Both the position numbers and the translations under genes were made by a program. The notes below the pieces were generated by a model, which was not told the DNA's origin, made no database searches, and saw only the letters and a program-made list of their open reading frames with translations. A DNA stretch of 32,000 nucleotides from Schaalia odontolytica (lineage in GTDB: Bacteria > Actinomycetota > Actinomycetes > Actinomycetales > Actinomycetaceae), in the NCBI RefSeq assembly GCF_005696695.1, contig NZ_CP040006.1, forward strand, positions 390,001 to 422,000, read 5' to 3'. Positions 1,568 to 19,409 of the stretch are shown here, piece after piece. Position 1 is the first letter of the stretch. Each line of letters starts with the position of its first letter.

Positions 1568-2125
1568 CTAGTATTCGCTTGGAGCCGAAGTGGCGGTTGA
1601 ACCACTCGTGGATCCGGATGACGATCCACCGCTCGACGCGTGAGGAAGTCCGCCGTTCATGAGTAGTGATCCGCCTAGGGAACTTGCCACGGCACCAGCC
1701 GTGCTCGAGGCGGTGGACACGCCGAAAACCTTTGAGAACTTACCGATCGATGCCTTCAAAGCCACGGCAGCGTCGGACTTGGCGACACGGTCGAGAGCCT
1801 GATTAATTTTCTCAATCCGCGCCTTGTTTTCGTGCTCCGTTCCCGTGAAGCTCGACAGTGCCGCATTGATCTCGGCCTCGAACGTGCTGATCAGGGCCGC
1901 TTCGTTTTTCAGGAGCTCAGATACTGCGTTAAACATTTCGGTAGAGCTGTCCTGCACGGAACGTGGACCCGTCTCATGCCCCCAAAACATGCTCTTCTGA
2001 GCGGCCCCTAATGCAGAAGCCCCCTGAGCGGACTCCGTCATGGCATCAAAGCCCTTTACAACCTCAGTGGCTGCCGCTTCCTGCTTTGCGCTGTCAACAG
2101 AAACCGACTGGTACTGTCCGGCCAT
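1568..2125 (-). CDS. Small helical protein with a Ser/Gly-rich C-terminal tail; possible T7SS co-substrate or partner of the downstream large protein
   Basis: Track ORF 1568..2167. I trimmed the start to the ATG at 2125 (MAGQYQSVSVDSAKQE...), which is preceded by AGGAG (minus-strand context ttAGGAGcaaaaATG). The body looks helical and the tail is SSGGSSSGSTSGSTATSAPSEY. I did not recognise a domain. Confidence 0.55.
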   Translation of the reverse strand: MAGQYQSVSVDSAKQEAAATEVVKGFDAMTESAQGASALGAAQKSMFWGHETGPRSVQDSSTEMFNAVSELLKNEAALISTFEAEINAALSSFTGTEHENKARIEKINQALDRVAKSDAAVALKASIGKFSKVFGVSTASSTAGAVASSLGGSLLMNGGLPHASSGGSSSGSTSGSTATSAPSEY

Positions 2126-2180
2126 TTTTGCTCCTAATTGTCGATGGAAGATAAAAGAGCGCTGCAATGCGCCCGGTTGC

Positions 2181-2723
2181 TTACTTGGCGACCTTGAAGC
2201 GGCGGACCAGCGGCTTATCAGGCTGGTCGGAGCCCTCGATCTTCAGGGTCCACACGTAGGTCAGGTCAGAGCCCGAGCCCTCCACGTCCACGGTCCAGGA
2301 CGAGTAGTACTCGCAGTTCTGCTCCACGCACAGGTCGTAGGTGTCATTGCCCAGTCGCCAGAAGTCGGTGGCCGACATCATCTGGTACATCGTGTCGTTC
2401 TTGTTAACCACGGTCTGGCCCTTGGGATCAAGCTTGAACTGCTGGGAAGCAATCATGCTGGGCTCCACGCCCACCAGCTGCGCGCCAACCATGTTGTTCA
2501 AGGCGACGGCCTTCTCGGCGATCTGCTTCTTCTGCGCGCCCGACGCGGACTGCATCTGCTGCACCAGCTGCTGCTTCTGCCCCTGGGGAATGTTGGGCAG
2601 CTTGCTGATATCGGTGGCCTTGGAGCCACCTCCCCCAGAGGGGGAGCAGCCCGACAGTACGACGGCAGCGAGCAGCACGGATGAGGCGACCGCACGTGCG
2701 CGACGGGACACGAGAGAGGACAT
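2181..2723 (-). CDS. Lipoprotein of unknown function, immediately downstream of eccC
   Basis: Signal peptide with a lipobox: MSSLVSRRARAVASSVLLAAVVLSGC, where LSG-C is followed by SPSGGGGS. AGGAG lies 6 nt upstream of the ATG (gtAGGAGaaaaatATG). Confidence 0.7.
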   Translation of the reverse strand: MSSLVSRRARAVASSVLLAAVVLSGCSPSGGGGSKATDISKLPNIPQGQKQQLVQQMQSASGAQKKQIAEKAVALNNMVGAQLVGVEPSMIASQQFKLDPKGQTVVNKNDTMYQMMSATDFWRLGNDTYDLCVEQNCEYYSSWTVDVEGSGSDLTYVWTLKIEGSDQPDKPLVRRFKVAK

Positions 2724-2788: not shown

Positions 2789-5700
2789 TCAGATTGATGC
2801 AGGTGGGGTGTTCGCCAGCTGGGCAGCGACCACGCCGAGCTCTCGGTGGACGACCTGCGCGCGGCCCGGAACGGCTCGCTTGGGCTTGACACCGTTGATG
2901 ATTGCGCCCTCGCTGGGATTGCCGGACAGGAGGATGCCGGTGACCGCCAGGTCGTTCATCATCTGCAGGACCTTCTCGTAGGTCGCACGCGACGCGCCAC
3001 CCATACGGCGGGTGATGATCACGTGCAGGCCGATGTCGGCGGCCTGGGGCAGCAGGTCGATGAACTCCATGAGCGGATTGCCCGACGTCGTCGCGACCAA
3101 GTCGTAGTCGTCGACCAGGATCCACACCTCGGGGCCCGACCACCAGCTGCGGTCGCGGATCTGCTCGGGAGTCACGTCCGAACCCGGCAGGCGCGTGCGC
3201 AGGAATGCTGCGAGCTCGCGCATCTGCTTCATGGCCTCGGAGTGGTTCGTCAGGTACCCCAGCTGGTAGTCCTTCGGAATCGCGCCCATGAGCGTGCGGC
3301 GCATGTCGATCGACATGATCTTTGCCTCGCCCGGCGTGTACAGGCGCGTGACCTCGGAAATGATCGAGCGCAGGAACGTCGTCTTGCCCGTCTTGCCGTC
3401 GCCGAACAGGTACAGGTGCGACTCCGCGCGGGTGTTGAACAGGAGCGGTCCGAGGCGGGACTCCTCCACGCCCAGGATCATGTCGCCACCGCCGCGCGGC
3501 AGGACCAGCGGCTCGGGGATCTGCGCGAGGATCTCGGGAACCGTGACGTTCTCGGGCAGCAGGCGCAGCTTCGGGCCCTCACCGTGGACCAGGGACTCGC
3601 GGATCTTCGCCACCGTGCGGGCAACACCCTGCGACACTGTCGATGGATCCGGATCGTCGTCGGCGCGCGGCAGGCCGATCATCATTTCGTGGCCCACCAT
3701 GTCGATGCCTCGACCCGGGCGGCCCTTCGGAATACGGGCGGCGCCCTCGCGGTTAACGATCGACTCCTTCGGATTCGCCGTGTGCAGCTCCAGGCGCGAA
3801 CCGAAGATGTCCTGCGCCTCCGAACGGATGTCCATCCAACGGGCGGCCGACACGATGAGGTGAACGCCCAGCGACAGGCCTCGGCTCATCATCGTCGTCA
3901 CCGTGCGGTCCAGGCCATCGAACTCGCTGCGCAGCGCGCCCCAGCCGTCGATCACCAGGAACACGTCGCCGTAGCCGTCGTCGTACGTGCCCTCCAGGCG
4001 GCCGCGACGGTAGGTGTCCATCGAGTCGATGCCATGCGCGCGGAAGTAACGCTCGCGGTCATCCATGATCGCCGCGATCTCGGCGATCATACGCGTGCGC
4101 ACCTCCTCGGTGTCGCGCGTCGCGATGCCCGCCACGTGCGGGGCGCCTGCAAAGCCGGCGAACGTACCGCCGCCGAAGTCCATGACGTAGAACTGGACTT
4201 CCTGCGGCGTGTAGGTCAGCGACAGGGCCTGCACGATCGTACGCAGTGCCGTCGACTTACCCGTCTGCGGGCCGCCGACCAGCGCGAAGTTACCGCCCGC
4301 GCCCGACAGGTCCAGGACGAGGGTCTCGCGACGCTGCTCGAGCGGCAGGTCGACCGTGCCCAGGGGCACGCGCAGGGGGCCGGACTCGCGCCACGCGCGC
4401 GACACGAAGCCGAGCTCCGGGTCCGGGCGCAGGTCGGGCATGAGGGTCGCGAAGGTATCCGGGATCTCCAGCGGCGGCAGCCACACCTGGTGCGCCGGGT
4501 AGCCCTTGCCCTTCATCTTCTCCACGGCGATGTCCATCTCGGACATGTCCGCCCACACCTCGTCGCCGGCCAGAACGACTTCCTGGTTCTGGTCGATCTC
4601 TTCCTCCTCGCCCAGGTCCTCGCGCGTGATGACGGGAGCGACCGTGAACGGCAGGATCTCGATCGGCGCGGTTGGAGCGCCGGCCGTCGAGGCCTCGGAA
4701 ATCGACGCGAGCGTACGCGCCGGCGGGGGAGCGGCCACGTAGGACGCGCGGAAACGAACGAGGCCGTCGCCGCCCGCCTTCAGGAAGCCCGAACCGGGCA
4801 GCGGGGGCAGCTTCGCAGCGTCGGGAATACCCAGGACCTCGCGAGAGTCGTTCTCCGTGAAGGTCTTCAGAGCAATGCGGTACGACAGGTGCGACTCCAG
4901 GCCGCGCGCCTTACCCAGGTCCATCTTCTGCGAGGCGAGCAGCAGGTGCACCGACAGGGATCGGCCCAGACGACCGATCATGATGAAGACCTCGCCGAAC
5001 TCCGGCTTGGCCACGAGCATTTCCGTGAACTCGTCCAGGACGATGAACAGGGCAGGCAGCGGCGGGAACTCGTGCTTGCCCGCGAGACGATCCGCCTCGT
5101 AGTCGGACACGTTCGCGTAGTTGCCCGCCTGGCGCAGCATCTCCTGGCGGCGCACCATTTCACCCTGCAGGGCGTCCTGCATACGGTCGACGAGGGAGAG
5201 CTCCGACTCCAGGTTCGAGATCATGGCCGACACGTGCGGCAGGTCCGCCATACCGGCGAAGGTAGCGCCACCCTTGAAGTCGACGAGAACCAGATTCAGC
5301 TGCTCCGGCGAGTGGGTGAGCGCCAGGGCCAGCACGAGGGTACGCAACACCTCGGACTTACCCGAACCGGTCGCGCCGATCAGCAGGCCGTGCGGACCCA
5401 TACCCTGCTGGGCGGATTCTTTAATGTCCAGGACCACGGGGCGGCCCTCGGGCGTGACAGCGAAGGGAGCGGCGAGGCGTTCGCGGCCCTCGCGGCGTCG
5501 CCACTGCTTCTCCGGGTCGAAGTCTCGGATATCGCCGATGCCGACGAGCTCCATGAGGTCCATTTGGCGGGACTCGTCCGAACGGCCCACCGGCGTCTCC
5601 GCCTCTTCCAGGTTCTGCTGGGTGGCGAAGGGCGTCATGCGGCGGGCCACGGCCTCGGCCTGCACGGCGGTGAGGCGGTCGGCGAACGCCTGCTCGGGCA

Positions 5701-6835
5701 GGGAGTCCATGGTGACCACGTCGACCACGTCCGCGCCCTTGTGATCCGGGTTGGGGTGGATGACGAGGCGCAGCGCCGTGTGCGACTTCATGGGCGTCCA
5801 CTCGCGGGCGCGGGACATGATCGTCACGCCGCGCACGCCCACCGCCGAACCGAAGGGGGAGTTGGGCGGGAACTCGGCCCCGTCCAACACGAGGAGGAGG
5901 TGGGGCCACTCGGGCATGTCGTCACCCGGGCGGTACGCGCCGCGCATCGCGATGTCGGGGCCGATCATCTCGGCGAGCTCGCGCGGGTCCGTCGAGATCA
6001 TGCGGCCCGGCCCCACCGCGTCGCGCACGATGGAGGAGCGGGCCTGCGGCATCCACTTGACCCATTCCCAGTCGCCCAGTCGATCGGCCGAACACAGGAC
6101 CGCGATCTTGAGCTTGGAGGGGTCGATGAAGCACGCCAGGTGCATCATGATGGCGCGCATTTCGTCGTAGGCGGTCTCGCCGTCGCCGACGACCTCGATG
6201 TGGCTGAAGTCACCCAGGTAGAGGAACTTGCCGACGTTGTCCGTGTGGTCATGGACGCCGATGAAGCGGTCCATGGCGGACAGACACACGACGTCCATCT
6301 CCGTCATCGGGTCGATCGGGGGACGCTCGAAAATGAGGCCGAGGGGCTGGGTGCCCGAGCCGTAACGGAACGTCAGCAGGTCGTACGTGTTGCCCTCGCG
6401 CGACCACAGGCGCGAACCATTCGCCGCCAGCGTCACGAGAGCGTCGGGGGAGGGGTAGACCCAGTTGTAGTAGGCGCGCTGCTTCTTCGCGACCTTGCGC
6501 ACGGACTCGCGCGTCTCCGCCAGGTAGGAGAGGTATTCGCGGCGCTGCGTCTTGACCCGCGTGCGGTACTGGGAGAACTGACGGTAGATGTTGAAGCCGA
6601 CCATGCCCAGCATGGCGACCAGCATGCCGCCGCCCATCATCAAGGAGCGCGTGTTGCCGTCGTTCTGCAAAGCCATGAAGACCATGACGCCCGTCGAACC
6701 GAGCATTGGGACGACCATCATCAGGACGTTACCGATCGATGCGGGCTCGGCCTTCTCCGGCGGCATCTGGATTGCCAGGGTGCCGGAGGGCTGCTCCGGA
6801 ACCGCGACAGTCCGCCGTTTCTTGCGTGTAACCAT
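2789..6835 (-). CDS. eccC: Type VII secretion FtsK/SpoIIIE-family ATPase EccC
   Basis: The track ORF is 1363 aa. There are two N-terminal TM segments (IGNVLMMVVPMLGSTGVMVFMAL and LMMGGGMLVAMLGMVGFNI). Three P-loop domains carry Walker A motifs GATGSGKSE, GGPQTGKST and GDGKTGKTT. I prefer the start at the ATG at 6835 (MVTRKKRRTVAV) because GAGGAG lies 5 nt upstream. Confidence 0.95.
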   Translation of the reverse strand: MVTRKKRRTVAVPEQPSGTLAIQMPPEKAEPASIGNVLMMVVPMLGSTGVMVFMALQNDGNTRSLMMGGGMLVAMLGMVGFNIYRQFSQYRTRVKTQRREYLSYLAETRESVRKVAKKQRAYYNWVYPSPDALVTLAANGSRLWSREGNTYDLLTFRYGSGTQPLGLIFERPPIDPMTEMDVVCLSAMDRFIGVHDHTDNVGKFLYLGDFSHIEVVGDGETAYDEMRAIMMHLACFIDPSKLKIAVLCSADRLGDWEWVKWMPQARSSIVRDAVGPGRMISTDPRELAEMIGPDIAMRGAYRPGDDMPEWPHLLLVLDGAEFPPNSPFGSAVGVRGVTIMSRAREWTPMKSHTALRLVIHPNPDHKGADVVDVVTMDSLPEQAFADRLTAVQAEAVARRMTPFATQQNLEEAETPVGRSDESRQMDLMELVGIGDIRDFDPEKQWRRREGRERLAAPFAVTPEGRPVVLDIKESAQQGMGPHGLLIGATGSGKSEVLRTLVLALALTHSPEQLNLVLVDFKGGATFAGMADLPHVSAMISNLESELSLVDRMQDALQGEMVRRQEMLRQAGNYANVSDYEADRLAGKHEFPPLPALFIVLDEFTEMLVAKPEFGEVFIMIGRLGRSLSVHLLLASQKMDLGKARGLESHLSYRIALKTFTENDSREVLGIPDAAKLPPLPGSGFLKAGGDGLVRFRASYVAAPPPARTLASISEASTAGAPTAPIEILPFTVAPVITREDLGEEEEIDQNQEVVLAGDEVWADMSEMDIAVEKMKGKGYPAHQVWLPPLEIPDTFATLMPDLRPDPELGFVSRAWRESGPLRVPLGTVDLPLEQRRETLVLDLSGAGGNFALVGGPQTGKSTALRTIVQALSLTYTPQEVQFYVMDFGGGTFAGFAGAPHVAGIATRDTEEVRTRMIAEIAAIMDDRERYFRAHGIDSMDTYRRGRLEGTYDDGYGDVFLVIDGWGALRSEFDGLDRTVTTMMSRGLSLGVHLIVSAARWMDIRSEAQDIFGSRLELHTANPKESIVNREGAARIPKGRPGRGIDMVGHEMMIGLPRADDDPDPSTVSQGVARTVAKIRESLVHGEGPKLRLLPENVTVPEILAQIPEPLVLPRGGGDMILGVEESRLGPLLFNTRAESHLYLFGDGKTGKTTFLRSIISEVTRLYTPGEAKIMSIDMRRTLMGAIPKDYQLGYLTNHSEAMKQMRELAAFLRTRLPGSDVTPEQIRDRSWWSGPEVWILVDDYDLVATTSGNPLMEFIDLLPQAADIGLHVIITRRMGGASRATYEKVLQMMNDLAVTGILLSGNPSEGAIINGVKPKRAVPGRAQVVHRELGVVAAQLANTPPASI

Positions 6836-6973
6836 CAGGTCTCCTCGCGCTGCGCGCGTACGTGTTCGATGCGACTGCACCCAGTGTAGCTGAGTGGACT
6901 TCCAAGTTTTAACCGACGGTTAGCCTCAGTGCATTACACTGGGCACTGTTGTTTCCCGACGATCGGAGGTTTC
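6836..6973. promoter_or_regulatory. Divergent intergenic region between eccC and the eccD-like gene, with candidate -10 elements and a 9-bp inverted repeat
   Basis: CCCAGTGTA (6880-6888) and TACACTGGG (6935-6943) form a 9-bp inverted repeat. This places TACACT (a TAnnnT -10-like hexamer) upstream of each divergent gene on its own strand. TGAGTGGACT at 6891-6900 recurs in the esx/eccD intergenic region. Confidence 0.3.
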
Positions 6974-8410
6974 ATGAGCGCCACCATGGTGTCCGTGACC
7001 GTTATCGACTCCGATGGTGCCTCTGATTTCGCCGCTCCTGAAGGGACCACGGTCGCCGGATTGTGCGCGATGCTGGCCATCGACTTGACCCTCCCTTCGG
7101 TCCGCGTTTCCTACGCCGATGGGCGTCCCCTCGACGGCGGCGCTGTCCTCGGGCGTGACCTGCCCGCAGGGTCGACGATCGCTGTGTCCAGTCGCGTCCT
7201 GTCCGCTCAGCAGGTCAACGAGGCCTCGGAACGTCAGGAGAACCAGTGGCTGTCCCCGGTCCTGGCCCTCCTCGGCTACTGCTTCATCGTGATCGGCGCG
7301 GTCAGCTCCCTGTGCCTCTTGCCGATGGTCGGCGATGCGGTCCTCATTGGGTTCGCTCACCCCGAGGACGGCCCGAAGTGGGCCGTCGAAGTCGTGAAGA
7401 TCCCGATGTGGGCGCGGGGCGCGTGTGCCGCAGTGTGCTGCGCTGCTTCGATCCTCCCGCTTTTTGTGTCGCGCACGGTCCGTTCGAGGCCTGCCCTGTT
7501 GCTCCTGATGCCCGCGTTGGCCGGATATAGCGCGATCGGCTTCGTGTCGATGGCCGGCATCCACGCCCTGTCGGTCGCCCCCGTGATCGGAGTGTGGGTT
7601 GCCCTCGCGGTTTCGCTGGCAGTCGTGTCACTGACGACGACCCCCACCGCGTTCAGCGCGTTCTTCGCGTGGATTGGTGCCACGGCGCTCGTCACGATCG
7701 GCGCGTACCCGTTGTTGAGCCTCATCGACATCGCTCCGCTGGCTCTCCTCCTCGGGGTGTTCCTGTTCCTGATGGCGCCTCGTTTTGCGTTGCGCGTGCC
7801 CGACAGTCAGCTCATTGACTCCGCGTCGGTGCAGACGATCGCGTCGCGTATCCGTCAGCCTCCCGCGCAAAAGCCCAGCACGGTGACCGGCGGCCGGATG
7901 GCGGATGCCCTCGGGCACACGGATGCTCGGTACACGCTGCTGGTTGCCTCCTCGACGCTGTTTGTGCTGGTAGGCGGCATACCCCTGGCGTACACGGTGA
8001 CTCCCGCGATCACGCTGGGCCGAGGCCTCGGCGGCTTCATCTTCGTCATCATGTCCATCCTGATTCTGTTGACGGCCCCGCGAGGGGTACGCACGCGCGC
8101 CGGGCAGGTCCTGCCTCGCATCGCTGCGGCGGGTGTCGGCTGTGCGTTCCTGTTTGGTACCTGGTCACAGTCCTTGGTGGTGGGGAAAGGAAAAAACACG
8201 CACTCGTTGTTCCCCCTGCTCCCGCTGGCGATTCTGCTCATCATCGCGATCGCGATGGTCCTGTGGATGACGCTGTATGTTCCCAAAGGACACGCCGCCC
8301 TCGCGGGCACGATCCTCGACTTCGTGCAGACCTTCTGCATCTTTACACTTCTCCCCGCGGCGGTCATCTCCTCGGGTCTCTTCGAGTTTGCTTGGAGGGC
8401 AGTCCTGTAA
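6974..8410 (+). CDS. EccD-like polytopic membrane protein (second paralogue): N-terminal ubiquitin/YukD-like soluble domain plus about 11 TM helices
   Basis: Track ORF 6929..8410. I prefer the start at the ATG at 6974 (MSATMVSVTVIDSDGASDFAAPEGTTVAGL...), which has GGAGG 4 nt upstream. The N-terminal ~90 aa look like a beta-grasp domain (VSVTVI...VRVSYADGRPLDGGAVLGRDLPAGSTIAVS). About 11 hydrophobic segments follow. This is the EccD architecture, but it is called from topology only. Confidence 0.7.
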   Translation: MSATMVSVTVIDSDGASDFAAPEGTTVAGLCAMLAIDLTLPSVRVSYADGRPLDGGAVLGRDLPAGSTIAVSSRVLSAQQVNEASERQENQWLSPVLALLGYCFIVIGAVSSLCLLPMVGDAVLIGFAHPEDGPKWAVEVVKIPMWARGACAAVCCAASILPLFVSRTVRSRPALLLLMPALAGYSAIGFVSMAGIHALSVAPVIGVWVALAVSLAVVSLTTTPTAFSAFFAWIGATALVTIGAYPLLSLIDIAPLALLLGVFLFLMAPRFALRVPDSQLIDSASVQTIASRIRQPPAQKPSTVTGGRMADALGHTDARYTLLVASSTLFVLVGGIPLAYTVTPAITLGRGLGGFIFVIMSILILLTAPRGVRTRAGQVLPRIAAAGVGCAFLFGTWSQSLVVGKGKNTHSLFPLLPLAILLIIAIAMVLWMTLYVPKGHAALAGTILDFVQTFCIFTLLPAAVISSGLFEFAWRAVL

Positions 8411-9870
8411 TGGCTGATACTACGAAGACTCCTTTCGCCCATGCGCCCGCTTCGCGGCTCGTCGGCGCGTATCTCATCGACCTGCTGGTCCTCGGGGTCC
8501 TGCTTGGTGTGACGTGGTACGTGCACTTCACGGCGTGGACGATCGGAATGATCACTGCCGAGGCCGTGGTTGCCTCCGCGCTCATGCTCGGCGCGTCCGG
8601 CCGGACGCCGGGCATGGCCCTCATGCGCGTGTGCATGATCCGCGACGAGGAAGACGCGCAGACTCCGTCGCTCGGCGCGGCGCTGGGCTACACGGCCCTC
8701 GCTGTGCTCCTCCAGGTCACCGTCGTGGGCCTGCTCGCCTCGTATGCGATGGTCCACGATGGGCGTACGTGGCTGAGCGGCCCCACCCGTACCCGCTTTG
8801 TCGACCTGCGCAAGCATGCGGCGCTCGCGGCGGGCCCCGGTGAGGTCGAGCGCGCCGAGCGTCCGCACATGGCCCCCAGTGGTTTTGAGAGCGTGCATGA
8901 GGGGGTTGACCAGTGGAGCGCTCCCGCTGCGCCGTTGACGCCCGTGCCCTCCTCGGCGCCGGACTATTCCGCGCCCGGTCAGCGTGCGAACGACCCCTTT
9001 GGGACGGGTTACAGCGCTCCTGCGGTCCCGGCGGTCTCCCCGCTGCCTGCGGCCCCCGCCATGCCGGCGGCGCCCAGTGCGCCAGCCGTGCCCAGCACGC
9101 CTGCTGCGCCCGGACTGTCCGCTGCGCCTTCGGCTCCCGCTGTGCCCGCCGCGCGCGAGTCCAACGAGTTCGAGGCGCTCCTCGCGCCGCCACAGGGAAC
9201 GCCGGACACCCACCGCCCCGCGCCCCAGCGCCCCGCGACACCGTCCGTGCCCGCGGTACCTCCGGTGCCCAGCGTGCCCGCCTCGTCGACGCCTGCCGCG
9301 CCCGCGCAGGTTCCCGCCCAGGCCAGCTGGGGAGCTCCCGCTCAGCAGGTGCCCCCTCAGCCCGGCCAGGCCTCGTACAACGCAGGAGGGCAGTATGCGG
9401 CCCCCGCATCGGGTGTGCCCGGACCTCCGCCGAGCCGCCGCGACGTGCAGGCTGCGCAGCGCTCCGGCACCTCCCAGTGGGGTGGGGCCGGCCAGTCCCA
9501 GTGGGGTGCACCCGCGACGCCGCCGCGCACGCAGCTCCTGTGGCTCATCTTCGACTCCGGGCAGCGCGAGCTCATCGACATGCCGGTGACTCTTGGGCGT
9601 GCACCCGCAGCCGTCGAGGGCTCGCGTGCGGTCGTCGTGCCCGACGCGACGATGTCGCTCTCGCGCACGCACATGCGCCTGGGGCCCACGGCCACCGGTG
9701 CCTGGATCGAAGACTCCTTCTCCGCGAACGGCACGCAGATTCGTACGCCCGATGGCCGCGTCATGGAACTGACGGGCGGACAGGCGGTCGAGGTGCCTGC
9801 CGGTACCGAGGTCATCATGGGAGACCGGAGGGCCACGATCGTCTACGCCGACGCTGACTCGGTGCACTGA
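8410..9870 (+). CDS. Membrane protein with an N-terminal RDD domain, a ~220-aa Pro/Ala-rich linker and a C-terminal FHA domain
   Basis: The ATG at 8410 overlaps the TAA of the preceding gene (TAATG). RDD-like region: SRLVGAYLIDLLVLGVLLGV...GRTPGMALMRVCMIRDEED, with 3 hydrophobic segments. FHA signature: VTLGRAP...LSRTHMRL...SANGTQIRTPDG (GR, SRxH and NGT motifs). The track ORF start at 8263 lies inside the upstream gene and was rejected. Confidence 0.85.
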   Translation: MADTTKTPFAHAPASRLVGAYLIDLLVLGVLLGVTWYVHFTAWTIGMITAEAVVASALMLGASGRTPGMALMRVCMIRDEEDAQTPSLGAALGYTALAVLLQVTVVGLLASYAMVHDGRTWLSGPTRTRFVDLRKHAALAAGPGEVERAERPHMAPSGFESVHEGVDQWSAPAAPLTPVPSSAPDYSAPGQRANDPFGTGYSAPAVPAVSPLPAAPAMPAAPSAPAVPSTPAAPGLSAAPSAPAVPAARESNEFEALLAPPQGTPDTHRPAPQRPATPSVPAVPPVPSVPASSTPAAPAQVPAQASWGAPAQQVPPQPGQASYNAGGQYAAPASGVPGPPPSRRDVQAAQRSGTSQWGGAGQSQWGAPATPPRTQLLWLIFDSGQRELIDMPVTLGRAPAAVEGSRAVVVPDATMSLSRTHMRLGPTATGAWIEDSFSANGTQIRTPDGRVMELTGGQAVEVPAGTEVIMGDRRATIVYADADSVH

Positions 9871-9902
9871 TTTCCTCGCCTGGCCGATCCTTCGAAGAGT
9901 CA

Positions 9903-9937
9903 CCGCCGCCGTCCCGATAGGGGCGGCGGCGGTTTTG
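9903..9937 (+). terminator. Rho-independent terminator after the RDD-FHA gene
   Basis: Stem CCGCCGCCGTCCC, loop GATA, stem GGGGCGGCGGCGG, followed by TTTTG. Confidence 0.6.
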
Positions 9938-10004
9938 TAGGTGCTCGCTCCCACCCCGATTTAACCGAATGGGAAATTCTTGTGGATGGAGGCGGGGCAA
10001 AGCG

Positions 10005-10042
10005 GCAGTCGGTCGATTCCGGGTGTGGAATCGACCGACTGC
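10005..10042. terminator. Perfect 16-bp inverted repeat (hairpin) between the convergent operons
   Basis: GCAGTCGGTCGATTCC, then gggtgt, then GGAATCGACCGACTGC. The arms are perfectly complementary. No clear U-tract follows on either strand. Confidence 0.4.
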
Positions 10043-10050
10043 GGCTACGG

Positions 10051-10077
10051 AAAAGGGCCGCCCCAATGGGGCGACCC
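10051..10077 (-). terminator. Rho-independent terminator of the esx gene pair
   Basis: The minus strand reads GGGTCGCCCC-attg-GGGCGGCCC followed by TTTT, about 30 nt after the stop of the second esx gene. Confidence 0.6.
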
Positions 10078-10104
10078 CTCCCGTAGCGCTAGGCGCTCAT
10101 GCTC

Positions 10105-10386
10105 TCAGAAGCGGGCAGCGTTGGACTGGTCCGTCGACTGGTAGTTGTCGCGAGCAGCATCAACGGCGGAGGAGGTGCGGGTCAGCACGTCCTTCAGGCC
10201 CTCAAGGCCCTGGTTCCACTGACGCTGAGCGGCGTCGTAGGCTTCCTGTGTCTTGCCTTCCCAATTCGAGCGCAGCCTGTTCAGCGTCTGCTCGAGGTCG
10301 TCGAGGCACTTCTGCAGGTTATCGGCACCGCCTTTGATGTCAGCGGCAGCGGCGTCAAGAGCGCCGTAACTTACCTGGAAATCCAT
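10105..10386 (-). CDS. esxB: WXG100 family protein carrying a C-terminal YxxxD secretion motif (CFP-10/EsxB-like)
   Basis: 93 aa. The WXG motif is WEG (RLRSNWEGKTQEAYDAAQRQW). The C-terminus is DNYQSTDQSNAARF, which contains Y-x-x-x-D. AGGAG lies upstream. The A versus B assignment is tentative. Confidence 0.85.
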   Translation of the reverse strand: MDFQVSYGALDAAAADIKGGADNLQKCLDDLEQTLNRLRSNWEGKTQEAYDAAQRQWNQGLEGLKDVLTRTSSAVDAARDNYQSTDQSNAARF

Positions 10387-10408
10387 GTCAGTCTCCTAAT
10401 CTAATCTC

Positions 10409-10714
10409 TCACAGGCCGCCGAGCAGCTGGGAGAACGAGTTCTTGGTCTCGGACTCGTTGTCTGTCATCGACGAATCGGTGGCGCGCAGGTTATCAGCGA
10501 GATCCTGAAGAGCCTGGTTAACCTTTCTTACGTTCTCATCCCACTGATCCATCAGCGACTGGAACTGCACCGACGCCTCGCCCTGCCAGGAGCTGCCGAT
10601 GGTCGACAGGTCGCCCTTAAGACGCGTGGTGTGGCCGTCGATGTCGTTCTTGGTGGACTCAACCGCTGCGAAGCCCTCCTTTAGGGCACCTTCTGCGGCC
10701 CTCTGGTCTGCCAT
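10409..10714 (-). CDS. esxA: WXG100 family protein (ESAT-6/EsxA-like)
   Basis: I prefer the start at the ATG at 10714 (MADQRAAEGALKEGF...), with GGAGG 5 nt upstream. 101 aa. The WXG motif is WQG (IGSSWQGEASVQFQSLMDQW). The A versus B assignment is tentative. Confidence 0.85.
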   Translation of the reverse strand: MADQRAAEGALKEGFAAVESTKNDIDGHTTRLKGDLSTIGSSWQGEASVQFQSLMDQWDENVRKVNQALQDLADNLRATDSSMTDNESETKNSFSQLLGGL

Positions 10715-10909
10715 GTGAACCTCCATTTGTATGAGTGGACTCTCTCGCCGGGATGCGTGAGAGCATGGGGACACATGAATACTAACCATGTTTTCATCGT
10801 TTTTTTCGATGTTACGGAAAAATCATGACAAAACCTGACCGAGAATCTAGACTTACAGGGTTGTGTCGTGTAGCCAAAAACCCCATCACGCGGCATTCGG
10901 GAGGACCCA

Positions 10910-12271
10910 ATGGCATCGAAAACATCACGAGGAGTGGCGCTGATTCCGCTCACGATTACGTACGGCGTTGACCGTAGTGACGTGACGCTTCCGCAGTCGA
11001 TCCCCCTGGTGGAGCTGCTCCCTGGAATGGTTGAAACGGTGGGCGCTTTCACTGATCAGCCAACGAATGACGGCTTCGCGGTGCGTACGGCCTCGGGTCG
11101 TCTGCTCGATCAATCCAAGTCCCTGTCCGCCCAGGGAGTGCGCGCCGGCGCGGCGCTCACGCTCGAGCCTCTGGGTGAGGGCGCTGCCGATATGGTCTAT
11201 GACGACCTCACCGAAGCGGTCGGTCAAGTCGTCGAAAGGGTGTCCACTCCTTGGACACGTGAGGACGCTCGCACTCTTGCTGCACTCTCTGCGGCGGGCC
11301 TCGTCTTCGTCGCAGCCCTCCTCCTGGCCACCACTCCTCCGGACGCCCTCACCGCCCTCGATTCTCATTCCGTCACGAGGTACAACGTCATTGCCGGCGC
11401 AATCGGTATCGTCGCGGCGCTGCTCGTGACTGCGACGTCCGCCGTGATGACCCGGAAGTACCCGCAGGCGAGCGGCATCGCGCTGGCACACACCGTCCCC
11501 TTCCTGACGGCCGCATCGGCTCTGCGCCTGAGCCAGAGCCACTGGGACACCGCCGGCTGGGGGTGGACCGGCCTCGGCCTCCTGATCGGCTCCCTCGCCG
11601 TTCTCGCGCTGCCCAAGCGGTACAGAATCTCTATCGCGGCCCCTCTCGTCGTCGGTACGGTTTTGGCCGCGACCGGCCTCCTGGTTCGGCTCGGTCAGCT
11701 CTCTCAGGCGGGTATCTCCGCAATCCTCTTCGCCCTCGTGATTGTGCTTCTCCAGGTCGCGCCCTGGATCGCGCTGGCCCACATCCCCGTGCGCATCCTG
11801 GATGCGGACACGACTGAGCAGATTCCCGCGAAGGGCATCACCGACCAGGTCAGCACCTCCTTCGTGTTCGTCGTCGCTCTGCGCGCCGGCGGGGCAATCG
11901 CCGCTCTCTTCCTGGCCGTCGCCCTGATGACGGCACCCGAAACGCGGTCGATCTCCCTGCCGCTGACCCTCATCGTGCTCGGTGCGGTCTCCCTCGTTCT
12001 CCAGACGCGTTCCATCCGCGCTCGTGTTGAGGTGCTTCTCGGTGCTCTCACCGGCCTGATCGTGATTCTCGTGGCCACTGTGCTCGGCGCCTACGCGGAC
12101 CCGAGGACCATGCCGTGGCTGACGCTGTCGGCAATCGCGACCGCCCTCGTCCTCGTCATCACGAACGTCGTCGGGCCTCGTGCACGCCCGCACCTGACGC
12201 GCATCGCCGACACGATCTCGGTGCTGTCGCTGTTTGTTCTGCTTCCCCTGGCCGTCTACCTGTGGAGCTGA
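10910..12271 (+). CDS. eccD: Type VII secretion integral membrane protein EccD
   Basis: 453 aa. The N-terminal ubiquitin-like domain has the typical pattern (LTITYGVDRSDVTLPQSIPLVELLPGMVETVG...SGRLLDQSKSLSAQGVRAGAALTLEPL). About 11 TM helices follow. GGGAGG lies upstream of the ATG. Confidence 0.9.
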   Translation: MASKTSRGVALIPLTITYGVDRSDVTLPQSIPLVELLPGMVETVGAFTDQPTNDGFAVRTASGRLLDQSKSLSAQGVRAGAALTLEPLGEGAADMVYDDLTEAVGQVVERVSTPWTREDARTLAALSAAGLVFVAALLLATTPPDALTALDSHSVTRYNVIAGAIGIVAALLVTATSAVMTRKYPQASGIALAHTVPFLTAASALRLSQSHWDTAGWGWTGLGLLIGSLAVLALPKRYRISIAAPLVVGTVLAATGLLVRLGQLSQAGISAILFALVIVLLQVAPWIALAHIPVRILDADTTEQIPAKGITDQVSTSFVFVVALRAGGAIAALFLAVALMTAPETRSISLPLTLIVLGAVSLVLQTRSIRARVEVLLGALTGLIVILVATVLGAYADPRTMPWLTLSAIATALVLVITNVVGPRARPHLTRIADTISVLSLFVLLPLAVYLWS

Positions 12272-12274
12272 GCC

Positions 12275-13729
12275 ATGCCGTCGAGTAAAGACATCCTCGA
12301 AGCCCAGCGTTTTAATCGAAACCGCCTGATCACGGCCTTCACCTCCGGCACGCCCGACGGGCGCGAGGTCGACACGCCCTCGCCCGTGCGCCCCCTTATT
12401 TTCGGGCTCGTGGTCGCCGTTATTCTCAGCGTGGTGGGAATCGGCATGCGCGTTTTTGCGCCGAACCCGAAACTCGGGGAGGCGCAGTATCAGCTGGTTG
12501 ACGTCAAGGGGACGGGTGCCCGCTATTTCTGGGCAAACGGCGTCCTCCATCCCATCGCGAACGTGACCACCGCTAGGCTCCTCAGCCCCGAATCGAAGCT
12601 GACGACCATCCAGGCATCAGCGTCGTCACTCGAGAACATTCCGCGCGGCGCCCAGATCGGCCTGCCCGACGTCCCCGATGACGTGCCAGTACCCGACATG
12701 CTGAGTAAGCAGTGGCTCTCCTGCGACATGGAGTCCGGATACCACACGTGGATCGCCAAGGAACTGCCTGTGGCGAATTTTCCGGTGAAGCAGGCGACAT
12801 CCGCGCTCGTTCAGGCGACCGGCAGCGGAGACAAGTACTTCGTCGATCGGGAAAAAGGCAAGAAGTACTACATCGACTCCAGCGTAAGCCGCCTGGGTGA
12901 CTGGGCGCTGTCCTTCCAGAACCTCACCAGCTACCCGATCACCGTCGAACCCGAGTGGCTCGACCTCTTCCCTTCGGGCACGCCTCTGCGCCCCTGGAGC
13001 TACAACGACATTGAGAACGCGGGGCAGCCGGCCAAGAACCTGCCCGGTGACTTGAAGAACGAGGGCATCACCATCGGAATGGTCCTCGACCAGGTCGACT
13101 CCACCGGTCAGGTCAAAAACTCCTACCTGGTGATCGACGACTCGAATCTGGTGGTCTTCAACTCGACTGCGGCGCGCCTGTATCAGGACGCCCCGCCCTC
13201 GAAGAAGTTCCCCACCGAGATGTTCAAGTACGTCGAGCCCGTCCAGGCCGTCTTCGTCGGTGACGATTGGCCTGCCGTCGAGGACTTTGAATCGCCCGAG
13301 TGGTTCAACGAGAGCCGCGACGCGGCCAGCCGGACGGTCCTGTGCGCCGCGATGGACACCACTGATCGCGCTAATCCGACGTTCGACCTGGTCACCATGC
13401 CTGAAAAGCGTGCGATCGAAGCGTCCTACGATGCGGAATCTCTACAGTCCCCGAAGGGGCCGTCGACGACGCGCAACGTCACTGTCGCGGGCGGATCTGG
13501 CGCCCTCCTTGCCCTCACGTCCGGCGGTGGTGGCGAGGCCGCGTCCTACGTCTTCATCTCCGATATGGGCTTCCGCCACTCCCTCGGCGATGTCCCCTCC
13601 GTCTCCATGAATGCCCTCGGCTGGAGCGCCTCTGAGGCCGCGTCGGTCCCGCGCGCGTGGGGCGAGCTCATCCCGCCGGGTTCCGAGATGTCGCCGAAGG
13701 CCGCCGCCACCTCAGTGGGGATCAAGTGA
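12275..13729 (+). CDS. eccB: Type VII secretion protein EccB
   Basis: 484 aa. N-terminus KDILEAQRFNRNRLITAF, then a single TM (IFGLVVAVILSVVGIGM), then a large extracytoplasmic domain containing IPRGAQIGLPDVPDDVP. These match the EccB pattern. The gene starts 3 nt after the eccD stop. Confidence 0.9.
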   Translation: MPSSKDILEAQRFNRNRLITAFTSGTPDGREVDTPSPVRPLIFGLVVAVILSVVGIGMRVFAPNPKLGEAQYQLVDVKGTGARYFWANGVLHPIANVTTARLLSPESKLTTIQASASSLENIPRGAQIGLPDVPDDVPVPDMLSKQWLSCDMESGYHTWIAKELPVANFPVKQATSALVQATGSGDKYFVDREKGKKYYIDSSVSRLGDWALSFQNLTSYPITVEPEWLDLFPSGTPLRPWSYNDIENAGQPAKNLPGDLKNEGITIGMVLDQVDSTGQVKNSYLVIDDSNLVVFNSTAARLYQDAPPSKKFPTEMFKYVEPVQAVFVGDDWPAVEDFESPEWFNESRDAASRTVLCAAMDTTDRANPTFDLVTMPEKRAIEASYDAESLQSPKGPSTTRNVTVAGGSGALLALTSGGGGEAASYVFISDMGFRHSLGDVPSVSMNALGWSASEAASVPRAWGELIPPGSEMSPKAAATSVGIK

Positions 13730-15144
13730 GCGCCCGCCGCACGCGTTCCCGCTTCCTGGGCCGAGGCCTCGTCGGGGCCTCGCTGATCGCTGGACTCGCG
13801 CTCGTGCCGATTGCCGCACCGGTTGTCTCGCCTGATGACTCCGGTGCGTTCGGTCCTGGCGTCGCTCACGCTGACCCGGTGCCGACCCCGAGCGTGCGTC
13901 CGACTCCGACTGCGACTCCCTCGTCGTCGGCGACGACGCCCGCGAGCGAGTCCGAGGGCGGCGAATGCTCGCAAAACTCGCCCTCGTACATCAAGCAAGC
14001 ACCCGCCATCTTCGACGCCGTCGGGGTACGTCGAGCCTGGGAGGTCTCGCGAGGCCGTGGCGTCACGGTCGCGATCGTTGACTCGGGCGTCGCCGCTGGC
14101 AATCAGCACTTCCAGGGCCCGGACGGGTCCGTCGTGCTGCCCGGCATTGACCTGAGCGGTGAAAACACCGACGGGCGCGTCGACGTCGGCGAACACGGCA
14201 CGGCCATCGCCGGTGCGATCGCCGCGCAGGAGCTGCCTAAGGAGATGGGATCCGGCCTCGTCGGCGTCGCCCCCGAGGCGAAGATCCTCCCGGTGCGCGT
14301 TGACACCGGGCTTCAGGACAATCGCCCGCACAAGGAAGGCGAAGAGACCTTCATGTCGAAGGTGGGCCGCGGGATCCAGTGGGCCGCCGACCATGGCGCG
14401 CAGATCATCGTCGTCGCACAGTCTGCTCCCGAGGGGGACCCCCAGCTGGAGGCAGCCATTAACGCCGTGCGCGGCCGGGCCCTCGTCGTGGCATCGACCG
14501 GCAACGTGTACCAGGGACAGGAAGCGAATCAGGTCGTCTACCCGGCCGCCTACCCGGGTGTGCTCGGCGTGACCGCCTCGAATGCTGACGGATCGGCCTC
14601 GGACCAGCAGGTGCACGGCGCGCACGTCAAGCTCGCTGTTCCCGCCGGCGTCATCCTCACGACCTGGTTCGATCAGGCCGACTGCCTCGTCGGCGGATAC
14701 GAGGGGGACCAGCCCCTGCCGTCCTCGTCCTACGCGACCGCATACGCGGGCGGCTTCGCGGCCCTCGTGGCCTCGGCCTACCCCGATGAGGGGCCCGACA
14801 TGTGGAAATACCGGCTCGAAGTGACCGCCCTGCGCGGCACGCCCGATCAACGCACCGACGCCCTCGGCTGGGGTGTCGTCGCTCCCTTCGACGCCCTCAC
14901 CTTCACCGATATCGGCACCAGGTTCGGGCCGGAACACCCTAACGCCGCGGAACATCCCGCTCCCGCCCGACCGGCCGTGGCCTCGGCGGACTTGACCTCG
15001 CGCGATAACAACCTGACGATCCGCGCCTACATCGTGTCCGCGATCGCAGTCCTCGGGGCCTCGCTGATCGGAGGTCTCGTGATCCTCTCCCACCTGCGCG
15101 GTAGGCCCGCCGTGGTCGAAGACTCAGAAGAGGACTTGTCGTGA
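13726..15144 (+). CDS. mycP: Mycosin (membrane-anchored subtilisin-like S8 protease) MycP
   Basis: I prefer the start at the GTG at 13726, which overlaps the eccB stop (GTGA). There is a signal peptide (VSARRTRSRFLGRGLVGASLIAGLALVPIAAP). The catalytic motifs are VAIVDSGV (Asp), EHGTAIAG (His) and SSSYATAYAGG (Ser). The C-terminal TM anchor is AYIVSAIAVLGASLIGGLVILSHL. Confidence 0.9.
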   Translation: MSARRTRSRFLGRGLVGASLIAGLALVPIAAPVVSPDDSGAFGPGVAHADPVPTPSVRPTPTATPSSSATTPASESEGGECSQNSPSYIKQAPAIFDAVGVRRAWEVSRGRGVTVAIVDSGVAAGNQHFQGPDGSVVLPGIDLSGENTDGRVDVGEHGTAIAGAIAAQELPKEMGSGLVGVAPEAKILPVRVDTGLQDNRPHKEGEETFMSKVGRGIQWAADHGAQIIVVAQSAPEGDPQLEAAINAVRGRALVVASTGNVYQGQEANQVVYPAAYPGVLGVTASNADGSASDQQVHGAHVKLAVPAGVILTTWFDQADCLVGGYEGDQPLPSSSYATAYAGGFAALVASAYPDEGPDMWKYRLEVTALRGTPDQRTDALGWGVVAPFDALTFTDIGTRFGPEHPNAAEHPAPARPAVASADLTSRDNNLTIRAYIVSAIAVLGASLIGGLVILSHLRGRPAVVEDSEEDLS

Positions 15145-16328: not shown

Positions 16329-16389
16329 CGGGCCTCGGCTTTCCTGCGAGCCCGAGTGCCTGAGCGCCCGAACGAAAGGAACAGACACA

Positions 16390-17607: not shown

Positions 17608-17673
17608 GCGGGCCGTGAGCCGCGACGCCCTCGCGAATGTTGAAACGCCTCGATGAAAGGAATAGACAAGACG

Positions 17674-19013: not shown

Positions 19014-19409
19014 ATGGTAGAGACGATGGGGAGCACCCCCGAAGAAGTAAGGCAGACTATCCGGGCTCAGATGGAAGCCGCTGAAAAGCGTGCCGAGAAT
19101 GCCCGTGAACTCGTCGAGATTCTCAAGACAGCGAAGACGCGTGGCGTCGACGCTCAGGGCGACGTTGAGGTCGAAATCGACTCGGACGGTCGACTCGTGA
19201 AGCTGTCGATCGATGATGACGCGCTCCAGGGAAGTGCGCGTGAACTCGAGGACTCGATCATGGAGGCCTACGCCGACGCCGGTCGCAACATGCGTGACTA
19301 CGTGCGCATGCAGACCACCCAGCGGTTCGGCGAGGACGGTGGCTCGCTCGGCGGCTACCTCGAGACTATTTCCTCGAACCTTGGTTCCCTCGGAGCGGGT
19401 CAGCGATGA
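19014..19409 (+). CDS. YbaB/EbfC-fold protein (EspL-like ESX-associated protein)
   Basis: 131 aa. It has an N-terminal helix (EEVRQTIRAQMEAAEKRAENARELVEILKTAKTRG), then GDVEVEIDSDGRLVKLSIDDDAL....LEDSIMEAYADA. This is the YbaB-like pattern. AGGA lies upstream. Confidence 0.65.
   Translation: MVETMGSTPEEVRQTIRAQMEAAEKRAENARELVEILKTAKTRGVDAQGDVEVEIDSDGRLVKLSIDDDALQGSARELEDSIMEAYADAGRNMRDYVRMQTTQRFGEDGGSLGGYLETISSNLGSLGAGQR

Follow-up and report, generated by a model that had tools for sequence, protein, structure and literature searches.

A divergent EccD paralogue and a membrane-anchored FHA protein encoded as an overlapping gene pair in ESX-4-like type VII secretion loci of Schaalia odontolytica and related actinobacteria

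In this study, we show that a type VII secretion system (T7SS) locus of Schaalia odontolytica carries, beside the gene for the ATPase EccC, two overlapping genes, here called eccDx and rdd-fha, which encode a second EccD and a protein that joins an RDD membrane domain to an FHA domain. The locus lies in a stretch of 32,000 nucleotides (NCBI RefSeq assembly GCF_005696695.1, contig NZ_CP040006.1, positions 390,001 to 422,000 of the forward strand), which is referred to as the window. EccDx is a genuine, very divergent, ancient and fast-evolving EccD paralogue with the ubiquitin-like (Ubl) domain and the fold of 11 transmembrane (TM) helices of that family, and the phosphothreonine-binding signature of the FHA domain, judged from its residues, is intact. 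With good confidence we regard EccDx and RDD-FHA as dedicated, stoichiometrically co-produced subunits of a T7SSa variant. The mechanism that we propose for them, a heterodimer of EccD and EccDx combined with a phospho-switch, is tentative, and we give it something short of an even chance. Taken as a whole, the statement that the two proteins are dedicated co-translated membrane subunits of a lineage-specific ESX-4-like T7SSa variant that works in this way is one toward which we lean slightly.

RESULTS

EccDx is a divergent EccD

The window is high-GC DNA in which the T7SS locus occupies 1.5–22 kb, and near-identical homologues are named Pauljensenia sp. or Schaalia. The features on which the argument turns are the following (aa, amino acids; ORF, open reading frame; AF2, AlphaFold2), with the kind of evidence in brackets.

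2789–6838, minus strand: eccC, FtsK/SpoIIIE-type T7SS ATPase from which the N-terminal FHA domain is absent (profile matches)
6839–6973, no strand assigned: divergent intergenic region between eccC and eccDx, holding the GGAGG ribosome-binding site at 6964–6968
6974–8410, plus strand: eccDx, divergent EccD paralogue, 478 aa (profile, AF2 model, orthologues)
6974–7198, plus strand: Ubl (beta-grasp) domain of EccDx, aa 1–75 (AF2, Foldseek, hhalign, conservation)
7778–7897, plus strand: TM6–TM7 loop of EccDx, aa 269–308 (conservation profile, alignments)
8408–8412, plus strand: TAATG stop/start overlap from eccDx to rdd-fha (read from the sequence)
8410–9870, plus strand: rdd-fha, 486 aa (ORF and family matches)
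8410–8829, plus strand: RDD membrane domain, aa 1–140 (Pfam RDD, hydropathy, charge distribution)
8830–9534, plus strand: Pro/Ala/Gln-rich low-complexity linker, aa 141–375 (alignment)
9535–9843, plus strand: FHA domain, aa 376–478 (Pfam FHA, invariant columns)
10910–12271, plus strand: canonical eccD, 453 aa (Pfam YukD 1e-11, Pfam EccD 3e-12, TIGR03920 93 bits)

An earlier reading of the window from its letters alone (the sequence-only reading) had placed a second EccD-like gene at 6974–8410, divergent from eccC, and rereading of the sequence upholds its coordinates and orientation, with eccC on the minus strand at 2789–6838. The ATG at 6974 is preceded by GGAGG, the ORF closes at the TAA of 8408–8410, and close homologues share the start residues MSATMV. 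A promoter consensus scan of 6700–11000 found none in 6839–6973, and the promoter and terminator scan was uninformative.

As a single sequence, EccDx scores 15.2–18.8 bits against the Pfam EccD family PF19053, for which the cut-off is 30 (E 0.01 to 8e-4), in an alignment that covers profile positions 17–335 of 339, the TM part; 6 of 20 close relatives match the same profile at E ≤ 1. No match was obtained between EccDx and Pfam YukD or TIGR03920, and BLASTP against the window's own EccD gave nothing significant. HMMER searches of the Protein Data Bank (PDB) sequences returned no EccD match from the EccDx family profile and none from canonical EccD either, and these searches are uninformative here because the canonical protein fails as well. 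Among the orthologues, the one of locus L031 passes PF19053 with 36.4 bits, the one of the Microbacterium locus (L050) stays just under the cut-off with 28.6 bits, and the orthologues P0389–P0400 have precomputed PF19053 matches.

The relationship becomes clear when families are compared. An hhalign comparison of 18 non-redundant EccDx orthologues with 17 canonical EccDs from the same related loci gave a probability of 98.2% (E 2.9e-14) for an alignment of 397 collinear columns at about 19% identity, which reaches from the first beta-strand through to the last helix. Each part of the protein also finds its counterpart, Ubl against Ubl at 94.5% (E 8e-8) and TM against TM at 94.7% (E 6e-8), and the negative controls remained at 0.1–0.4% (reversed EccD 0.3%, TrkH 0.2%, major facilitator superfamily 0.1%). 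An AF2 model built with 20 close homologues reached a predicted local distance difference test score (pLDDT) of 48.8 and was discarded. The final model, which used 25 more diverse sequences, has a pLDDT of 74.4 and a predicted TM-score of 0.65, and it shows a beta-beta-alpha-beta-beta N-terminal domain followed by about 11 long helices after residue 93. When this model was compared with the PDB by Foldseek, all 11 matches at E ≤ 1e-3 were ESX-3 or ESX-5 chains of 405–485 residues from entries 6SGW, 6SGX, 6UMM, 7B9F, 7B9S and 7NP7 (E 1.8e-9 to 1.7e-5, about 500 columns, with moderate TM-scores of 0.37–0.55). The Foldseek output names entries only, and the chains are identified as EccD by their length and by the full-length alignment. 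The next matches were ubiquitin-like domains (ISG15, SUMO) on the EccDx N-terminus. The EccD architecture that the sequence-only reading had seen in 6974–8410 is therefore borne out by the family alignment and by the Foldseek result, and profile and structure searches that found no likeness to EccD or YukD, which would have spoken against it, are not what we obtained.

The two paralogues differ in what they conserve. In canonical EccD, conservation peaks in the linker between Ubl and TM1 (residues 91–108, rYDDLvEAvG), and the window's own EccD carries this YDDLxEAxG motif, which has been lost from EccDx. The Ubl domain of EccDx, whose modelled secondary structure consists of strands 5–12 and 15–22, helix 27–33 and strands 43–47 and 67–73, includes at residues 18–38 one of the two most conserved regions of the protein (D18, P22, G24, T25, T26, G29, L30 and D37). 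In addition, EccDx has a conserved loop between TM6 and TM7 with the signature RvPdsQLlD..v.T.A..iR.P....PS.vT..R, in which T288 and T305 are present in at least 94% of sequences. This loop is longer than, and unlike, the equivalent loop of canonical EccD, it would be cytoplasmic if EccDx follows the EccD topology, and the low AF2 confidence in it suggests flexibility.

The RDD-FHA protein has an intact phosphothreonine-binding signature

The description of the 8410–9870 product as an RDD domain, a Pro-rich linker and an FHA domain (GR...SRTH...NGT) agrees with its motifs, with the Pfam matches of its homologues and with the invariant columns. Close homologues share the start residues MADTTK. 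By exhaustive phmmer search the protein has 1109 relatives at E ≤ 1e-3, 115 of them at E ≤ 1e-10; dozens of these are 300–540 residues long and match both ends of the query. The RDD domain comprises two to three hydrophobic helices, R16, D24 and a GRTPG motif. In the window protein it scores 20.6 bits against PF06271, with a cut-off of 24.1 (E 5.6e-4), and PF06271 matches 27 of 50 RDD-FHA homologues, the best at 4.3e-13. Across those 50 homologues D24 is at least 90% conserved, and NCBI calls one close relative an 'RDD family protein'. The linker differs in length even between strains, and the indels of the alignment are confined to it.

The FHA domain of the window protein scores 18.3 bits against PF00498 over the full profile 1–67, with a cut-off of 20.7 (E 3e-3), and 36 of the 50 homologues match PF00498 at E ≤ 0.01, the best at 3.4e-7. 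Its motifs can be read directly in the window protein (GR at 396–397, SRTH at 418–421 and SANGT at 438–442). Over the 50 homologues, at about 30% identity, G396, S418, H421, S438 and G441 are invariant, and the columns of R397, R419, N440 and T442 are at least 90% conserved. Its best PDB sequence matches are FHA domains, including those of Rv1747 and ArnA, with weak E-values. We also considered whether the protein is a homologue of EccE, and rejected this since it has no EccE (PF11203) similarity.

Two differing members of the family, P0252 (438 aa) and P0270 (515 aa), come from one source, each with 39,431 bases as the longest contig, and a single genome may encode two paralogues of the FHA protein.

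The pair accompanies eccC across three actinobacterial orders

A scan of one genome per GTDB species with two peptide patterns from the FHA core yielded 51 loci, 50 of them actinobacterial; the remaining one, from a Planctomycete (L051), was a weak FHA-only match (E 1e-3) and was set aside. The 50 loci belong to Schaalia, Pauljensenia and Actinomyces of the Actinomycetales, to Micropruina, Propionicimonas and other Propionibacteriales, and to one Microbacterium of the Micrococcales. Their ORFs were searched with the window proteins and with family hidden Markov models (HMMs). Among the 46 loci with sequence upstream of RDD-FHA, 45 have EccDx as its immediate upstream neighbour; in the Microbacterium locus EccDx was missed with the window proteins and found with the family HMM (E 2e-23). 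Wherever the contig permits, eccC adjoins the pair, and canonical eccD, eccB and mycP are present in every locus with enough flank, in the usual order eccC, eccDx rdd-fha, esxAB, eccD eccB mycP. Since both paralogues are always retained, EccDx accompanies EccD and does not replace it, and the position of the pair beside eccC in about 50 species of three orders indicates that it is not a chance neighbour. The two paralogues have diverged to different degrees, for in a phmmer comparison of the Micropruina locus (L027) with the window the E-value is 3e-23 for EccDx and 1e-60 for EccD.

Translational coupling of the two genes, which had been proposed from the TAATG at 8408–8412, extends through the family: the eccDx stop codon overlaps the start codon in all 45 listed loci, as TAATG in the clade of the window and as ATGA or GTGA elsewhere. 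Two metagenome-assembled genomes (MAGs) of Propionibacteriaceae (L048 and L049) depart from the usual order in that no esx genes intervene and the pair is flanked immediately by eccC on one side and eccD on the other. The genes of L049 run eccC, eccDx, rdd-fha, eccD, eccB, mycP. The first three junctions there are the overlaps TGATG, ATGA and GTGA, the start of eccB follows the eccD stop without a gap, and by their ORF coordinates the start of mycP overlaps the end of eccB. Overlapping junctions such as these are as expected for subunits produced in a fixed ratio.

The sole exception to the arrangement is Actinomyces dentalis DSM 19115 (L038, 8230–10312), a decayed locus in which short eccC fragments remain. 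The expectation that the EccDx and RDD-FHA pair co-occurs with eccC is supported in about 50 species, and this orthologous family is not widespread away from T7SS genes.

Some side observations concern the loci themselves. The decayed A. dentalis locus also keeps a kinase, a Fic gene and a TgpA-like gene. Actinomyces marseillensis (L044, 2288–7835) has two tandem copies of the eccDx/rdd-fha pair, which score identically and are accompanied by fragments of eccC; the doubling reflects either a duplication of recent date or an artefact of assembly. The locus is also present (L006, L007, L036, L010, L032) in assemblies that bear the titles Xylanimonas cellulosilytica 352_XCEL, Sanguibacter keddieii 250_SKED and Trueperella pyogenes 331_TPYO, and in some MAGs of those names. 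Their copies are 98–100% identical (about 46% for the Trueperella-labelled ones) to those of Schaalia, Pauljensenia or Actinomyces, and the organism names are probably wrong.

The locus is of the T7SSa type

The remaining features of the locus are as follows.

1568–2723, minus strand: genes for a lipoprotein and a helical protein, directly downstream of eccC
10105–10386, minus strand: esxA-like WXG100 gene, 93 aa, with the motif WEG (ORF translation; adjoins esxB in related loci)
10409–10789, minus strand: esxB-like WXG100 gene (Pfam WXG100 1e-16), with a likely start at an internal ATG at about 10714
12275–13729, plus strand: eccB (Pfam T7SS_ESX1_EccB 1e-49; TIGR03919 3e-43)
13657–15144, plus strand: mycP, the mycosin gene (Peptidase_S8 2e-29; TIGR03921 3e-63)

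EccC is recognised by TIGR03924 EccCa (1e-242), TIGR03925 EccCb (9e-230) and Pfam FtsK_SpoIIIE (9e-75); it aligns to EccCa from residue 29 and has no FHA domain. The mycP coordinates are given for the longest ORF; since this runs into the end of eccB, the real start may lie later. Its product has TM-like segments at aa 33–59 (signal or TM) and 453–481 (C-terminal TM anchor). With EccB, an FHA-less EccC, EccD, MycP and an EsxA/EsxB pair, the locus is a T7SSa of the ESX-4-like kind. Assignment to any of T7SSb to T7SSj was rejected, as EccC is without FHA, and no EssB, EsaA or free YukD was found among the window ORFs. Neither EccE nor a kinase or phosphatase was found among the ORFs scanned in the 32-kb window.

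Several neighbouring genes are mentioned for completeness. The mycosin gene is the first of four S8 subtilase genes in tandem (13657–18879, plus strand), and its product (495 aa) is the only one of the four with the C-terminal TM anchor typical of mycosin; the other three proteases, of 395–408 aa, have a signal peptide, are unanchored and score 121–129 bits against TIGR03921. Related loci have from 0 to 3 such extra copies. A YbaB-like gene follows at 19014–19409, and downstream of it lie EspC-like and WXG100_2-like genes (19406–21957, plus strand), an arrangement that is kept in the Schaalia group. The EspC-like protein (444 aa) contains a Gly-rich run of about 100 residues with GGAGG/GGGGF repeats and then a charged repeat region, the WXG100_2-like protein has hydrophobic segments and an extremely His-rich C-terminal tail, and both are probably substrates or secretion-associated proteins. 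At the other end of the locus, the lipoprotein (180 aa, lipobox LSGC) has relatives in L001–L025, and the helical protein (199 aa, with a Ser/Gly-rich tail) is confined to L001–L022 apart from a weak match in L026 (E 4e-4); neither belongs to a Pfam family. In L031, three tandem pairs of an Abhydrolase_8 (PF06259) gene and a DUF4853 gene lie between rdd-fha and esxAB (10321–17704, minus strand). The largest of these hydrolases has a weak WXG100-like match at its N-terminus, and the pairs look like a candidate cassette of T7SS lipase/esterase toxins with their immunity proteins. The window has a lone DUF4853 gene at 31060–31683 on the minus strand.

A membrane Ser/Thr kinase adjoins the cluster in distant relatives

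In 13 distant loci (L023–L029, L032, L033, L037–L039 and L049) an orthologous membrane Ser/Thr kinase adjoins the T7SS cluster; S. cardiffensis and S. vaccimaxillae are examples of species that have it. Its Pkinase domain (E about 1e-31 to 1e-35) retains the HRD and DFG motifs and is accompanied by a single TM helix and a small external domain. The gene usually converges with mycP; that of L049 precedes eccC and reads in the same direction. Two examples, identified by the Pkinase domain, are given here.

L023, 15206–16825, minus strand: linked kinase
L049, 2325–3716, plus strand: linked kinase

In L023–L027, L038 and L049 the kinase is paired with a TgpA-like transglutaminase gene, and neither gene occurs in the window. 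The genetic linkage suggests, and would fit, a phospho-dependent role. As the kinase travels with the TgpA-like gene and is absent near the window's locus, it is suggestive and not conclusive. For the same reasons, namely the shared travel with the TgpA-like gene and the absence from the surroundings in the window clade, we did not accept the linkage as proof of phospho-regulation.

DISCUSSION

The mycobacterial T7SSa core, as in ESX-3 and ESX-5, is built of EccB, EccC, EccD and EccE in the ratio 1:1:2:1, together with MycP. The present locus shares with it EccB, an FHA-less EccC, an EccD with a Ubl domain and 11 TM helices, a mycosin and an EsxA/EsxB pair, and the EccDx model superposes on the EccD chains of 6SGW, 6SGX, 6UMM, 7B9F and 7NP7. 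It departs from the mycobacterial systems in having two EccD genes, an additional RDD-FHA protein and no detectable EccE, and EccDx departs from mycobacterial EccD in that it is without the Ubl-TM1 linker motif and has its own conserved TM6–TM7 loop. The absence of EccE has a precedent, since it is missing from some ESX-4 variants (PMC11217815). In the ESX-3 protomer, two copies of one EccD adopt a bent and an extended conformation (PMC6986878). The linker of EccD3 is highly conserved; in the bent form it contacts EccB3 and EccC3, and the extended form is held by EccE3 (PMC6986878). The 91–108 motif of canonical EccD corresponds in position to that linker.

FHA domains are known from other secretion systems too. 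In the T7SSb of Bacillus subtilis, assembly requires YukD, a free Ubl protein that attaches to the FHA domains and to a domain of unknown function (DUF) of the ATPase (PMC12637312), and Ubl-FHA contacts can thus occur in this family of machines. The locus described here resembles T7SSb (EssC/YukB, YukD/EsaB) in bringing FHA and ubiquitin-like domains together in one T7SS. It differs in that the FHA domain is not part of the ATPase and has a protein of its own with an RDD anchor, the Ubl domain belongs to an 11-TM protein of the EccD type, the phosphothreonine-binding residues are conserved, unlike in EssC, and the other subunits are of the T7SSa type (EccB, MycP) and not EssA, EssB and EsaA. 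The Bacillota systems T7SSe, T7SSf and T7SSj contain stand-alone FHA proteins, kinases and phosphatases, and these systems are proposed to be regulated through threonine phosphorylation (PMC11217815; Garrett, Higginson and Palmer 2024). The likeness lies in a separate FHA component and, often, a membrane kinase encoded in the cluster; those systems are without EccB, EccD and MycP, and their ATPases carry FHA. In type VI secretion (T6SS), as cited in PMC11217815, Fha/TagH with PpkA/PppA forms a scheme in which FHA reads a phosphothreonine placed on a membrane component by a membrane kinase, and secretion is activated. An FHA protein and, in distant loci, a membrane kinase are encoded here too; the T6SS is an unrelated machine, its FHA protein is soluble, and the homology is limited to the FHA fold. 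In sequence, the FHA domain comes closest to FhaB/FipA (Rv0019c; NF049868, E 4e-3) and to the FHA domain of Rv1747 (6CAH), far below the cut-offs. These are likewise membrane-tethered, actinobacterial and linked to Ser/Thr protein kinases (STPKs), with differing anchors and contexts (cell division and an ABC transporter).

It seems plausible that EccD and EccDx form a heterodimer, that the complex is under phospho-dependent control and that RDD-FHA replaces EccE, as the sequence-only reading had proposed. What our analysis adds to that proposal, from profiles, the model and synteny, is a real EccD paralogue, an intact phosphothreonine reader and a pair tied to eccC. The heterodimer is supported indirectly, by the constant retention of both paralogues and by their conservation in different regions. 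In the mechanism that we envisage, the two EccD positions of a protomer would be filled by two gene products, one EccD and one EccDx. Canonical EccD would take the inner, bent-like position, because it keeps the linker that in bent EccD3 contacts EccB and EccC. EccDx would take the outer position, using its conserved Ubl surface and TM6–TM7 loop, and might dock RDD-FHA at the periphery, at the place that EccE has in mycobacteria. The FHA domain would then bind a phosphothreonine written by a membrane Ser/Thr kinase, such as the one encoded beside the cluster in many lineages and not in this window, with T288 and T305 of the EccDx loop, T25 and T26 of its Ubl domain and the linker of RDD-FHA itself as candidate phosphosites, so that assembly or activity (gating) of the machine would depend on phosphorylation. 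In its fullest form, as a distinct T7SSa subtype of Actinomycetales, Propionibacteriales and Micrococcales with an obligate EccD/EccDx heterodimer, RDD-FHA at the EccE position and threonine-phosphorylation-dependent assembly or gating, the proposal is doubtful.

Some observations weigh against this picture. The evidence so far is comparative and from structure prediction. The window proteins fall under the curated thresholds for EccD, YukD, RDD and FHA, so that their assignment to these families depends on the profiles, the orthologues and the model. Because the motifs used for retrieving the loci came from the family itself, the statement that the pair is always linked to a T7SS applies to this orthologous family and does not extend to every architecture of RDD plus FHA. 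In the decayed A. dentalis locus the RDD-FHA gene (569 codons) is intact with eccDx, eccD, eccB and mycP gone, and the kinase and the TgpA-like gene persist there as well, which, with the pairing of those two genes, means that the kinase linkage may be an inheritance of neighbourhood. The 32-kb window, and in the closest relatives (L001–L022) the surrounding 10 kb or so, yielded neither a kinase nor a phosphatase. Finally, a positive-inside count with three TM helices would place the linker and the FHA domain outside the cell.

These points bear on the alternatives to different degrees. It is unlikely, in our judgement, that the pair is a separate accessory or regulatory membrane module, in which EccDx would homodimerise and act with RDD-FHA and canonical EccD would still homodimerise; such a module could be an alternative scaffold on the same EccC for different substrates, or a signalling unit outside the core. 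It would account for the co-directional block that EccD, EccB and MycP form by themselves, usually split from the pair by the convergent esxAB genes, for the much faster evolution of EccDx than of EccD seen in the Micropruina comparison, and for the retention by canonical EccD of all the family features required for a homodimer. However, eccC and eccD flank the pair immediately in L048 and L049, the stop/start junctions from eccC through to eccD overlap in L049, and save for one decayed locus the pair never occurs without eccC nearby. A quite improbable alternative is that the FHA domain is a phospho-independent scaffold like that of T7SSb EssC/YukB, which would bind the EccDx Ubl domain or the EccC DUF constitutively and need no kinase. 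The FHA domains of B. subtilis YukB do bind YukD and the pseudokinase YukC without phosphorylation (PMC12637312; PMC11217815), and the absence of a kinase from the window and its closest relatives would suit this explanation. On the other hand, the FHA domains of EssC are without the phosphothreonine consensus (PMC11217815), whereas G-R, S-R-x-H and N-G-T are near-invariant here, and an STPK that looks catalytically intact is adjacent in 13 loci.

The topology of RDD-FHA raises a further alternative. Family-wide counts of Lys and Arg average 1.7 in the N-tail and 4.15 in the TM2–TM3 loop, against 3.15 in the stretch that follows the third hydrophobic segment, these last two having net charges of +3.0 and –0.2, respectively. 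Were the three segments true TM helices with the N-terminus inside, the linker of 230 residues could span the wall and display an FHA-fold beta-sandwich outside the cell, a parallel to EsaA, which extends from T7SSb. A signal peptide is missing from some homologues, whose long N-tails contain Arg, and the monoderm T7SSa has no known wall-spanning part, both of which would agree with such a role. We nevertheless hold an extracytoplasmic domain to be very improbable. Compartments that contain ATP are the only known setting of FHA domains whose phosphothreonine pocket is intact, and the kinase is linked in 13 loci. The third segment, moreover, has about 20 residues with a conserved Gly-Pro in its middle, and the Pfam description of RDD mentions two TM regions. 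We favour a re-entrant third segment, which would fit the positive-inside rule better and leave all Arg-rich segments and the FHA domain in the cytoplasm; the intact phosphothreonine pocket is the reason for which a cytoplasmic FHA domain is favoured. As for the idea that the two genes are unrelated neighbours of the T7SS, namely a generic RDD transporter-like protein and a decayed EccD copy without a role in secretion, we give it next to no credence. Public names such as 'hypothetical protein', 'RDD family protein' and 'FHA domain-containing protein', and the scores of the window proteins under the curated cut-offs, might be taken in its favour, but the ORFs are intact across three orders with a fixed position and a stop/start overlap, both proteins have invariant motifs, and in L049 the pair is embedded in a single coupled operon.

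With regard to novelty, the sequence-only reading had held that FHA was not known as a separate component of such loci. This has to be narrowed, for stand-alone FHA proteins already described in T7SSe, T7SSf and T7SSj of the Bacillota (PMC11217815) mean that the kind of part is not new, and it stands for T7SSa, from which a structure paper on T7SSb in 2025 stated the FHA domain to be absent (PMC12637312). What appears to be new, and apparently undescribed, is an RDD-fused FHA paired with a second EccD in a T7SSa of the EccB/EccD/MycP type. The text of PMC11217815 has 0 occurrences of RDD, Schaalia and Propioni, and contains no RDD fusion, EccD paralogue or T7SSa variant of Actinomycetaceae or Propionibacteriales. 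Our literature searches turned up no account of a second EccD, an RDD protein within a T7SS, an ESX-4 with FHA, or T7SS architecture in these two groups. Joint Genome Institute (JGI) names for close relatives (P0224, P0059) are misleading, with EccDx called a 'putative ABC thiamine transporter, inner membrane subunit' and RDD-FHA a 'putative translation initiation factor IF-2'. Public annotation fails to recognise EccDx as an EccD, and genome surveys consequently miss the variant.

To our knowledge, the high-resolution models of T7SSa are all mycobacterial, and in these one EccD gene gives two conformations and the role of the peripheral EccE is unclear. If EccD has been split here into two specialised paralogues, the lineage would offer a natural experiment on the job of each EccD position, and two genes would fix the bent/extended asymmetry that mycobacterial EccD reaches by conformation. 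The variant, in a lineage that also adds a phosphothreonine reader and lacks EccE, bears on the part played by EccD asymmetry together with EccE and on how the machine is regulated. If the mechanism is true, the system would combine T7SSa architecture and T7SSb-like FHA/Ubl logic in a naturally occurring hybrid, and it would be the first indication of a T7SSa wired to Ser/Thr phosphorylation, as has been proposed for the Bacillota subtypes and shown for T6SS. T7SS biology has hardly been studied in the carriers, Schaalia, Pauljensenia and Actinomyces, which are abundant commensals of the human mouth and gut.

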